Sequence record: OR845556.1
Strand: one strand, 5' to 3'
Source of the DNA: Escherichia phage ECO95 1-6-1
Length of the DNA stretch: 2,111 bases
The notes under the pieces were generated by a model that saw only the letters and a list, made by a program, of their open reading frames with translations, did no database searches and was not told the DNA's origin. Positions 1,979-2,111 of the stretch are shown here, piece by piece; positions within the stretch are counted from its first letter, which is position 1; each line of letters starts with the position of its first letter. The translations under genes and the position numbers were made by a program.

Positions 1979-2111
1979 CGCGTTGCTGGCGTTTTTCCAT
2001 AGGCTCCGCCCCCCTGACGAAGCGCTCAAAAATCGACGCTCAAGTCAGAGGTGGCGAAACCCGACAGGACTATAAAGATACCAGGCGTTTCCCCCTGGAA
2101 GCTCCCTCGTG
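1979..2111 (-). other. pMB1/ColE1 (pUC) plasmid replication origin, partial: the 3' end of the RNA II primer region and the RNA-to-DNA transition; the remainder lies beyond the right edge
   Basis: cgttgctggcgtttttccataggctccgcccccctgacga...aaaaatcgacgctcaagtcagaggtggcgaaacccgacaggactataaagataccaggcgtttccccctggaagctccctcgtg matches the canonical pUC ori proximal end. The AflIII/PciI landmark acatgt is at 1933-1938. RNA II would be transcribed right to left. Confidence 0.88.

Follow-up and report, generated by a model that had tools for sequence, protein, structure and literature searches.

A probable near-neutral AfeI marker in the RNA II primer region of a multiply marked pGEM-7Zf-type phagemid

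The window, by which we mean the whole 2,111-base stretch of DNA analysed here, is a piece of a laboratory phagemid. Along with the gene and signals positioned in Table 1, it holds an f1 origin, lacZ-alpha, a remnant of lacI and the start of a pMB1/pUC origin (~330 bases). The polylinker runs ApaI-AatII-SphI-XbaI-XhoI-EcoRI-KpnI-SmaI-BstBI-ClaI-HindIII-BamHI-EcoRV-MluI-NsiI, an order that we take to be that of pGEM-7Zf(+) (Promega) with SacI replaced by EcoRV. In fact, the hallmarks of a pGEM-7Zf-type phagemid were found together: T7 and SP6 promoters flanking a 7Zf polylinker, an f1 origin, bla, and lacZ-alpha with the lac operator. The top public matches of the window are vector-like plasmids and vector contamination; its f1 and bla regions likewise find their matches among vector-like records.

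Table 1. Positions of genes, signals, RNA II elements and marker changes, numbered along the window.
Feature	Window position	Strand	Remarks
Marker	2		MfeI gained
Marker	26-29		HpaI gained
Marker	145		MaeIII lost
Marker	205		XcmI gained
Marker	305		HphI lost
Marker	503		No common site altered
Marker	533		HphI lost, BfaI gained
bla start codon	616	minus	pUC/TEM-116 type
Marker	727-729		NdeI gained
Marker	846		MseI lost; within f1 origin region
Marker (G1026A)	1026		SnaBI gained, f1-origin DraIII lost (at 1021-1029, within the f1 origin)
Marker (T1105C)	1105		XbaI gained; within f1 origin region
Marker	1364-1366		HincII gained
T7 promoter	1418-1437		Flanks polylinker, within lacZ-alpha
Polylinker	1444-1544		Sites in the order given in the text
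Marker	1523-1524		SacI to EcoRV (GAGCTC>GATATC at 1521-1526); rest of polylinker intact
SP6 promoter	1557-1574	minus	
lac operator	1616-1632		
Marker (TCG>GGC)	1771-1773		NarI/KasI/SfoI site GGCGCC at 1771-1776; neighbour of the AfeI block in the series
DnaA box region	1899-1907	plus	TCATCCACA here; parent has perfect box TTATCCACA
Marker (T1900C)	1900		FokI gained
3' part of RNA II primer region, pMB1/pUC origin	1992-2111	minus	RNA II nt 436-555; rest beyond window end
A5 run	1992-1996	minus (T5 on plus)	RNA II nt 551-555; RNase H processing site and RNA-to-DNA switch
Template dC6 run ("-20")	2009-2014	plus	rG6 in RNA II, nt 533-538, about -18 to -23
Extended hairpin	2014-2048	minus	CUGAC/GUCAG outer stem around tip hairpin
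Tip hairpin	2019-2041	minus	RNA II nt 506-528; wild type GAGCGUCG / 7-nt loop AUUUUUG / UGAUGCUC
AfeI block	2021-2027		RNA II nt 520-526, about -30 to -36
Marker: AfeI/Eco47III hexamer AGCGCT	2021-2026		AfeI gained, replacing GCATCA; judged engineered; sole AfeI site of window
Upstream RNA II hairpin CCAGGGGGAAACGCCUGG	2081-2098	minus	Unaltered in window
rG run ("-265")	outside window		RNA II nt 286-291

At 2011-2040 the window reads cccctgacgaAGCGCTCaaaaatcgacgct. Here the five public references of pUC/pGEM type (L001-L005) carry GAGCATCAC, as do 45 identical pUC-type contigs drawn from the pattern scan described below. Aligned without gaps, five of the six bases of one hexamer differ (G>A, C>G, A>C and T>G at 2021-2024 and A>T at 2026; the original prediction counted five of seven), so that GCATCA becomes AGCGCT with no change in length and C2027 stays as it was. 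BLAST scores the same block as a 1-nt insertion, a deletion and two mismatches. Besides its AfeI site the block gains HaeII and HhaI sites and loses one for SfaNI. The original prediction had held that 2021-2027 departs from canonical pUC and thereby creates AfeI, a claim that would have failed had a reference origin carried the same bases; the five references and 45 contigs bear it out, all references reading GCATCAC at this place.

An AfeI site as such is no rarity. At least one AGCGCT turned up in 109 of 200 shuffles, a single copy by chance thus being not unusual, and random changes at the five altered positions made some new palindromic hexamer in 12% of cases. The significance of the block comes from its surroundings. 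From 1780 to 2111 the window differs from the pUC-type references only by the block and by T1900C (98.5% identity over 332 nt), which means that five changes are packed into 6 nt of an origin stretch with one other difference. It comes also from the company the block keeps, since it belongs to a series of site-creating changes that runs across the window.

To define this series we compared the window with the five references and kept only those positions at which no reference agrees with it. Sixteen clusters of window-specific changes emerged, separated by irregular gaps of 24-259 bp and spread over bla, the f1 origin, lacZ-alpha and the polylinker, the lacI remnant and the origin (Table 1). 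Half of them make a new palindromic hexamer (MfeI, HpaI, NdeI, SnaBI, XbaI, EcoRV, NarI and AfeI); random mutation of the same positions yields 2.4 such hexamers on average, and none of 20,000 trials reached eight. Other changes gain XcmI, HincII or FokI sites, or lose HphI, MaeIII, DraIII or SacI sites. Among the eight changed bla codons six are silent and two conservatively missense. Thus the changes are absent from all references, preferentially alter restriction sites and are mostly silent in coding sequence. Several site-creating clusters together with mostly silent bla codons are the signature of a deliberately marked plasmid, and of neither origin tuning nor natural drift.

Some details of the series deserve a word of their own. 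The two bla missense changes, read on the minus strand, are T158S at window position 145 and T138A at 205 in precursor numbering, which we presume to be T160S and T140A in the Ambler scheme. The XbaI site made by T1105C is the second in the window, the other lying in the polylinker at 1465-1470; it sits in GATCTAGA (1102-1109), where it overlaps a Dam site. An XbaI site overlapped in this way should resist the enzyme in DNA from dam+ hosts. At 1038 the window has A where three f1-containing references have T, with no restriction-site consequence; this change falls outside the sixteen clusters and, instead of being a marker, may belong natively to the f1 sequence of pGEM. We also considered a ladder plasmid, with markers placed at exact ladder spacings, and rejected the idea on the irregular spacings.

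RNA II is encoded on the minus strand, as the reverse complement of the window. From its start (GCAAACAAAA... / GCAAACAAAAAAACC...) to the last A of GGAAAAA, RNA II measures exactly 555 nt in three pUC-type references, all identical to the window in the shared part, and this agrees with the start-to-switch distance of ~550-555 nt given in PMC5043065 and in textbooks. On this basis RNA II nucleotide n lies at window position 2547-n. An independent mark of the switch comes from a 60-sequence alignment, which is almost fully conserved as far as GGAAAAAC and loses that conservation directly after it. The origin is of the ColE1/pMB1 type by its high identity, by a dC run ~20 nt upstream of the switch and by an A-run 555 nt from the RNA II start. 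A search of the window against Rfam at gathering thresholds matched no family, because RNA I and the 5' part of RNA II lie outside the window. Past position 2111, too, lie the RNA II promoter and the site of the pUC high-copy point mutation.

In these coordinates the block falls where it had been predicted to fall, in the 3' part of RNA II and a few tens of nucleotides (~30-36) upstream of the RNA-to-DNA transition. The G/C-rich stretch said to be its neighbour is the dC6/rG6 run, at a distance of 7 nt. The window leaves this run unaltered, and it does not vary across the alignment. As a C-rich stretch it has been implicated in the formation of persistent hybrids (Masukata and Tomizawa 1990, according to the summary in PMC4412123). 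The primer, once hybridized, is cut by RNase H and then extended by Pol I (PMC5043065, PMC3167613).

The block occupies the 3' arm of the tip hairpin, the last before the G-run, around which the CUGAC/GUCAG stem closes and leads straight into the G6 run. In the wild type this is a strong structure: the 39-nt element folds at -18.4 kcal/mol (z -4.8), none of 200 shuffles is as stable, and its pairs have a probability of ~1.0 in the full-length fold. The altered arm keeps four of the eight pairs of the wild-type register. The conserved terminal hairpin GAGCGUC(G/A)-loop-UGAUGCU(C/U), directly 5' of the G-run, is therefore missing from the window as such; this is a departure by engineering, and the origin is still classed as pMB1-derived. 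A hairpin is nonetheless predicted at the same place, because AGCGCU can pair with AGCG(U) in the unaltered 5' arm (GAGCGU...). It would shift register to a 9-bp stem that contains one bulge and closes a 3-nt loop, and its 39-nt element, at -16.2 kcal/mol (z -3.5), is still significantly stable. By hairpin stability AGCGCT belongs to the best 6.6% of the 4096 possible hexamers and ranks sixth among the 64 palindromes, which fits a considered choice or a lucky one.

How far does the change reach into RNA II? We folded a composite RNA II, in which the block was set into reference sequence, at lengths of 528, 535, 545, 555 and 576 nt. At every length the changes of pairing partner were limited to nt 506-528 and cost +2.0 to +2.2 kcal/mol, in minimum-free-energy folds that take the rest of RNA II from the references and leave co-transcriptional R-loop formation aside. 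Outside nt 500-530, the rG run at 286-291 included, shifts in unpaired probability did not exceed 0.001 at 535 nt and longer, or 0.033 at 528 nt. The predicted change of structure thus spares the G/C runs and the A5 site. Folding RNA II with and without the block had been proposed as a way to see whether the 3' stem-loops change: the tip hairpin does, and the change stays local, at a ddG of about +2 kcal/mol.

Natural counterparts of the block were sought in several ways. When one genome per species was scanned for the pattern CCGCCCCCCTGAC-N14-20-ACGCTCAA, at least 120 ColE1-type loci came up. In nearly all of those listed the heptamer is GCATCAC while the neighbouring 8 bases vary freely; the variants (GTATCAC, GCATCGC, GCATCAA, GCCTCAC and GTATCAT) differ from it by one or two bases, and 12 further PLSDB plasmids free of the scan pattern add only ACATCAT and GCATGAC. 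Across 59 ColE1-type sequences the heptamer is at least 90% identical beside the varying loop. Few bases of the region are conserved as strongly, which means that purifying selection acts on the heptamer and that full neutrality of its replacement is not guaranteed. The exact block with its flanks (29 nt) had zero matches in genome, metagenome and viral contig collections. Megablast and blastn searches of PLSDB and complete E. coli sequences likewise returned none that carries it, the best full-length hits standing at 98.5% (332 nt) and 97% (131 nt). Many of the scan loci (L006-L125) are fragments of pUC- or p15A-type origins that sit on short contigs assigned to Streptomyces, Nostoc, Myxococcus, Clostridium and the like. 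These organisms are unable to host such origins, and the fragments are therefore vector contamination in public assemblies.

In the 60-sequence alignment the helix of the block hairpin is 96% paired, and its variation is one-sided (G-C/G-U and A-U/G-U). No compensatory double change was seen in this hairpin among the 60 sequences, so covariation neither proves nor refutes the helix. Since conservation and thermodynamics are what support it, the constraint could lie on the primary sequence, which the block destroys. The upstream hairpin CCAGGGGGAAACGCCUGG is another matter: natural ColE1-type plasmids show compensatory changes at five of its six pairs (for example CCGGAGGGAAACUUCCGG and CCUAUCAGAAAUGAUAGG), and by this comparison it is well supported as a structure, whereas the conservation of the block hairpin is one of sequence only.

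What, then, is the block? Natural variation of ColE1-type origins would have some room, for these origins vary by 5-18% over a 137-nt region, but the block is found in none of the 120 genome loci listed or the 12 additional PLSDB plasmids. Natural variants of the heptamer stop at one or two bases, the flanks are 100% pUC-type, and a perfect six-cutter site stands here amid other site-creating changes in a synthetic vector. We regard a natural origin as vanishingly improbable and effectively refuted. A sequencing or assembly artefact in an ordinary pGEM/pUC origin could point to a precedent in reference L002, with its homopolymer errors typical of long-read assemblies. However, the homopolymers of the window (C6, T5) are intact, and a clean, length-preserving swap of five bases that forms a palindrome is not what such errors produce, still less eight times in 2.1 kb. 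An artefact is very improbable and effectively excluded.

There is more to be said for a block that is engineered and yet functional, one that shifts copy number by altering how RNA polymerase pauses, how the persistent RNA-DNA hybrid forms or how RNase H cuts. GCATCAC is near-invariant in the family beside a variable loop; half of the wild-type pairs are lost, and re-registering with a 3-nt loop and a bulge costs ~2 kcal/mol. According to PMC4412123, hybrid formation depends on two things, the dC/rG interaction and the rate of elongation. Moreover, the 43-nt 3' fragment of the variant, folded alone, prefers a hairpin that includes part of the G-run. Yet this G-run-sequestering hairpin is gone in the longer and full-length folds: in full-length and shortened RNA II alike the change is local, and both the pairing of the G-run and the accessibility of rG(-265) are unaltered. 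Markers also lie in the DnaA box, the f1 origin and bla, which fits the placement of markers and not the tuning of an origin. We therefore consider a functional block unlikely. The original prediction had held a neutral engineered site and an effect on priming to be equally possible. That equality did not stand: the some sixteen markers, a fold change confined to nt 506-528 and the unaltered accessibility of the rG run make the neutral engineered site the clearly better supported of the two.

We are thus very confident that the block was engineered, and moderately confident, judging from predicted folds, that it is near-neutral. Taken together, the block is probably a restriction-site marker that was engineered, with little effect on function, into a pGEM-7Zf derivative carrying many such markers. 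To explain these results, we propose that the AfeI block would be a deliberate diagnostic restriction site, one of about sixteen markers placed throughout a pGEM-7Zf-type phagemid, which would let the plasmid be told from its parent along its whole length. Such a design would serve recombination, heteroduplex or mismatch substrates. In RNA II, AGCGCU would pair with the unaltered 5' arm and so preserve a hairpin there. Neither the dC6/rG6 run nor the A5 RNase H site nor any other part of RNA II would be altered, and the origin should function essentially like that of the parent. Marked plasmids are typically paired with an unmarked parent for mapping by digestion. The purpose of the present series was presumably of this kind: mapping the products of heteroduplex formation, recombination or repair by digestion against the unmarked parent.

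The other marker of the origin touches a different element. T1900C disrupts position 2 of the DnaA box (consensus TTWTNCACA, PMC5835720), ~90 bp downstream of the RNA-DNA switch. Going by this consensus, the DnaA-dependent route by which pBR322-type origins load helicase could be weakened by the change.

The biological weight of the AfeI block is small, as it is a cloning or diagnostic marker in a laboratory construct. There are practical consequences all the same: the plasmid carries ~16 diagnostic differences from pGEM-7Zf, and exact-match methods, whether used to annotate origins or to screen for vectors, will overlook the AfeI variant. A small point about ColE1 priming is also to be made. 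If the plasmid replicates normally, a stretch at least 90% conserved tolerates a five-base replacement that keeps the hairpin, and such tolerance would suggest that the constraint is on structure rather than sequence. It is conceivable, and in our opinion rather improbable, that the hairpin at nt 506-528 has a sequence-specific role instead, for example in pausing or in nucleating the hybrid of the persistent R-loop; the AfeI swap would then alter priming or copy number, and the plasmid would be a ready-made mutant that separates the presence of the hairpin from the presence of the GUGAUGC sequence.

We found neither the plasmid nor a description of it in the searchable literature, in restriction-site, heteroduplex, Holliday, branch-migration or pDEA-7Z/pAKE-7Z contexts. 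The pDEA-7Z and pAKE-7Z plasmids of the West laboratory are reportedly pGEM-7Zf derivatives, multiply marked for in-vitro recombination and heteroduplex work. They are a possible lead to its identity through a likeness in concept: a phagemid of pGEM-7Zf size with many restriction-site heterologies against a partner. With the pMB1/pUC (ColE1-type) origin, the window shares the dC6 run, the A5 switch site and the upstream covarying hairpin; it differs in the last hairpin, whose 3' arm has five of six bases exchanged and whose wild-type register gives way to a predicted alternative one. With pGEM-7Zf(+) it shares bla, the f1 origin, the order of the T7/SP6-flanked polylinker, the lac operator and the pUC origin, as far as these lie in the window, whereas EcoRV in place of SacI and ~15 further marker changes of the backbone, among them the two bla missense changes and the one in the DnaA box, set it apart.
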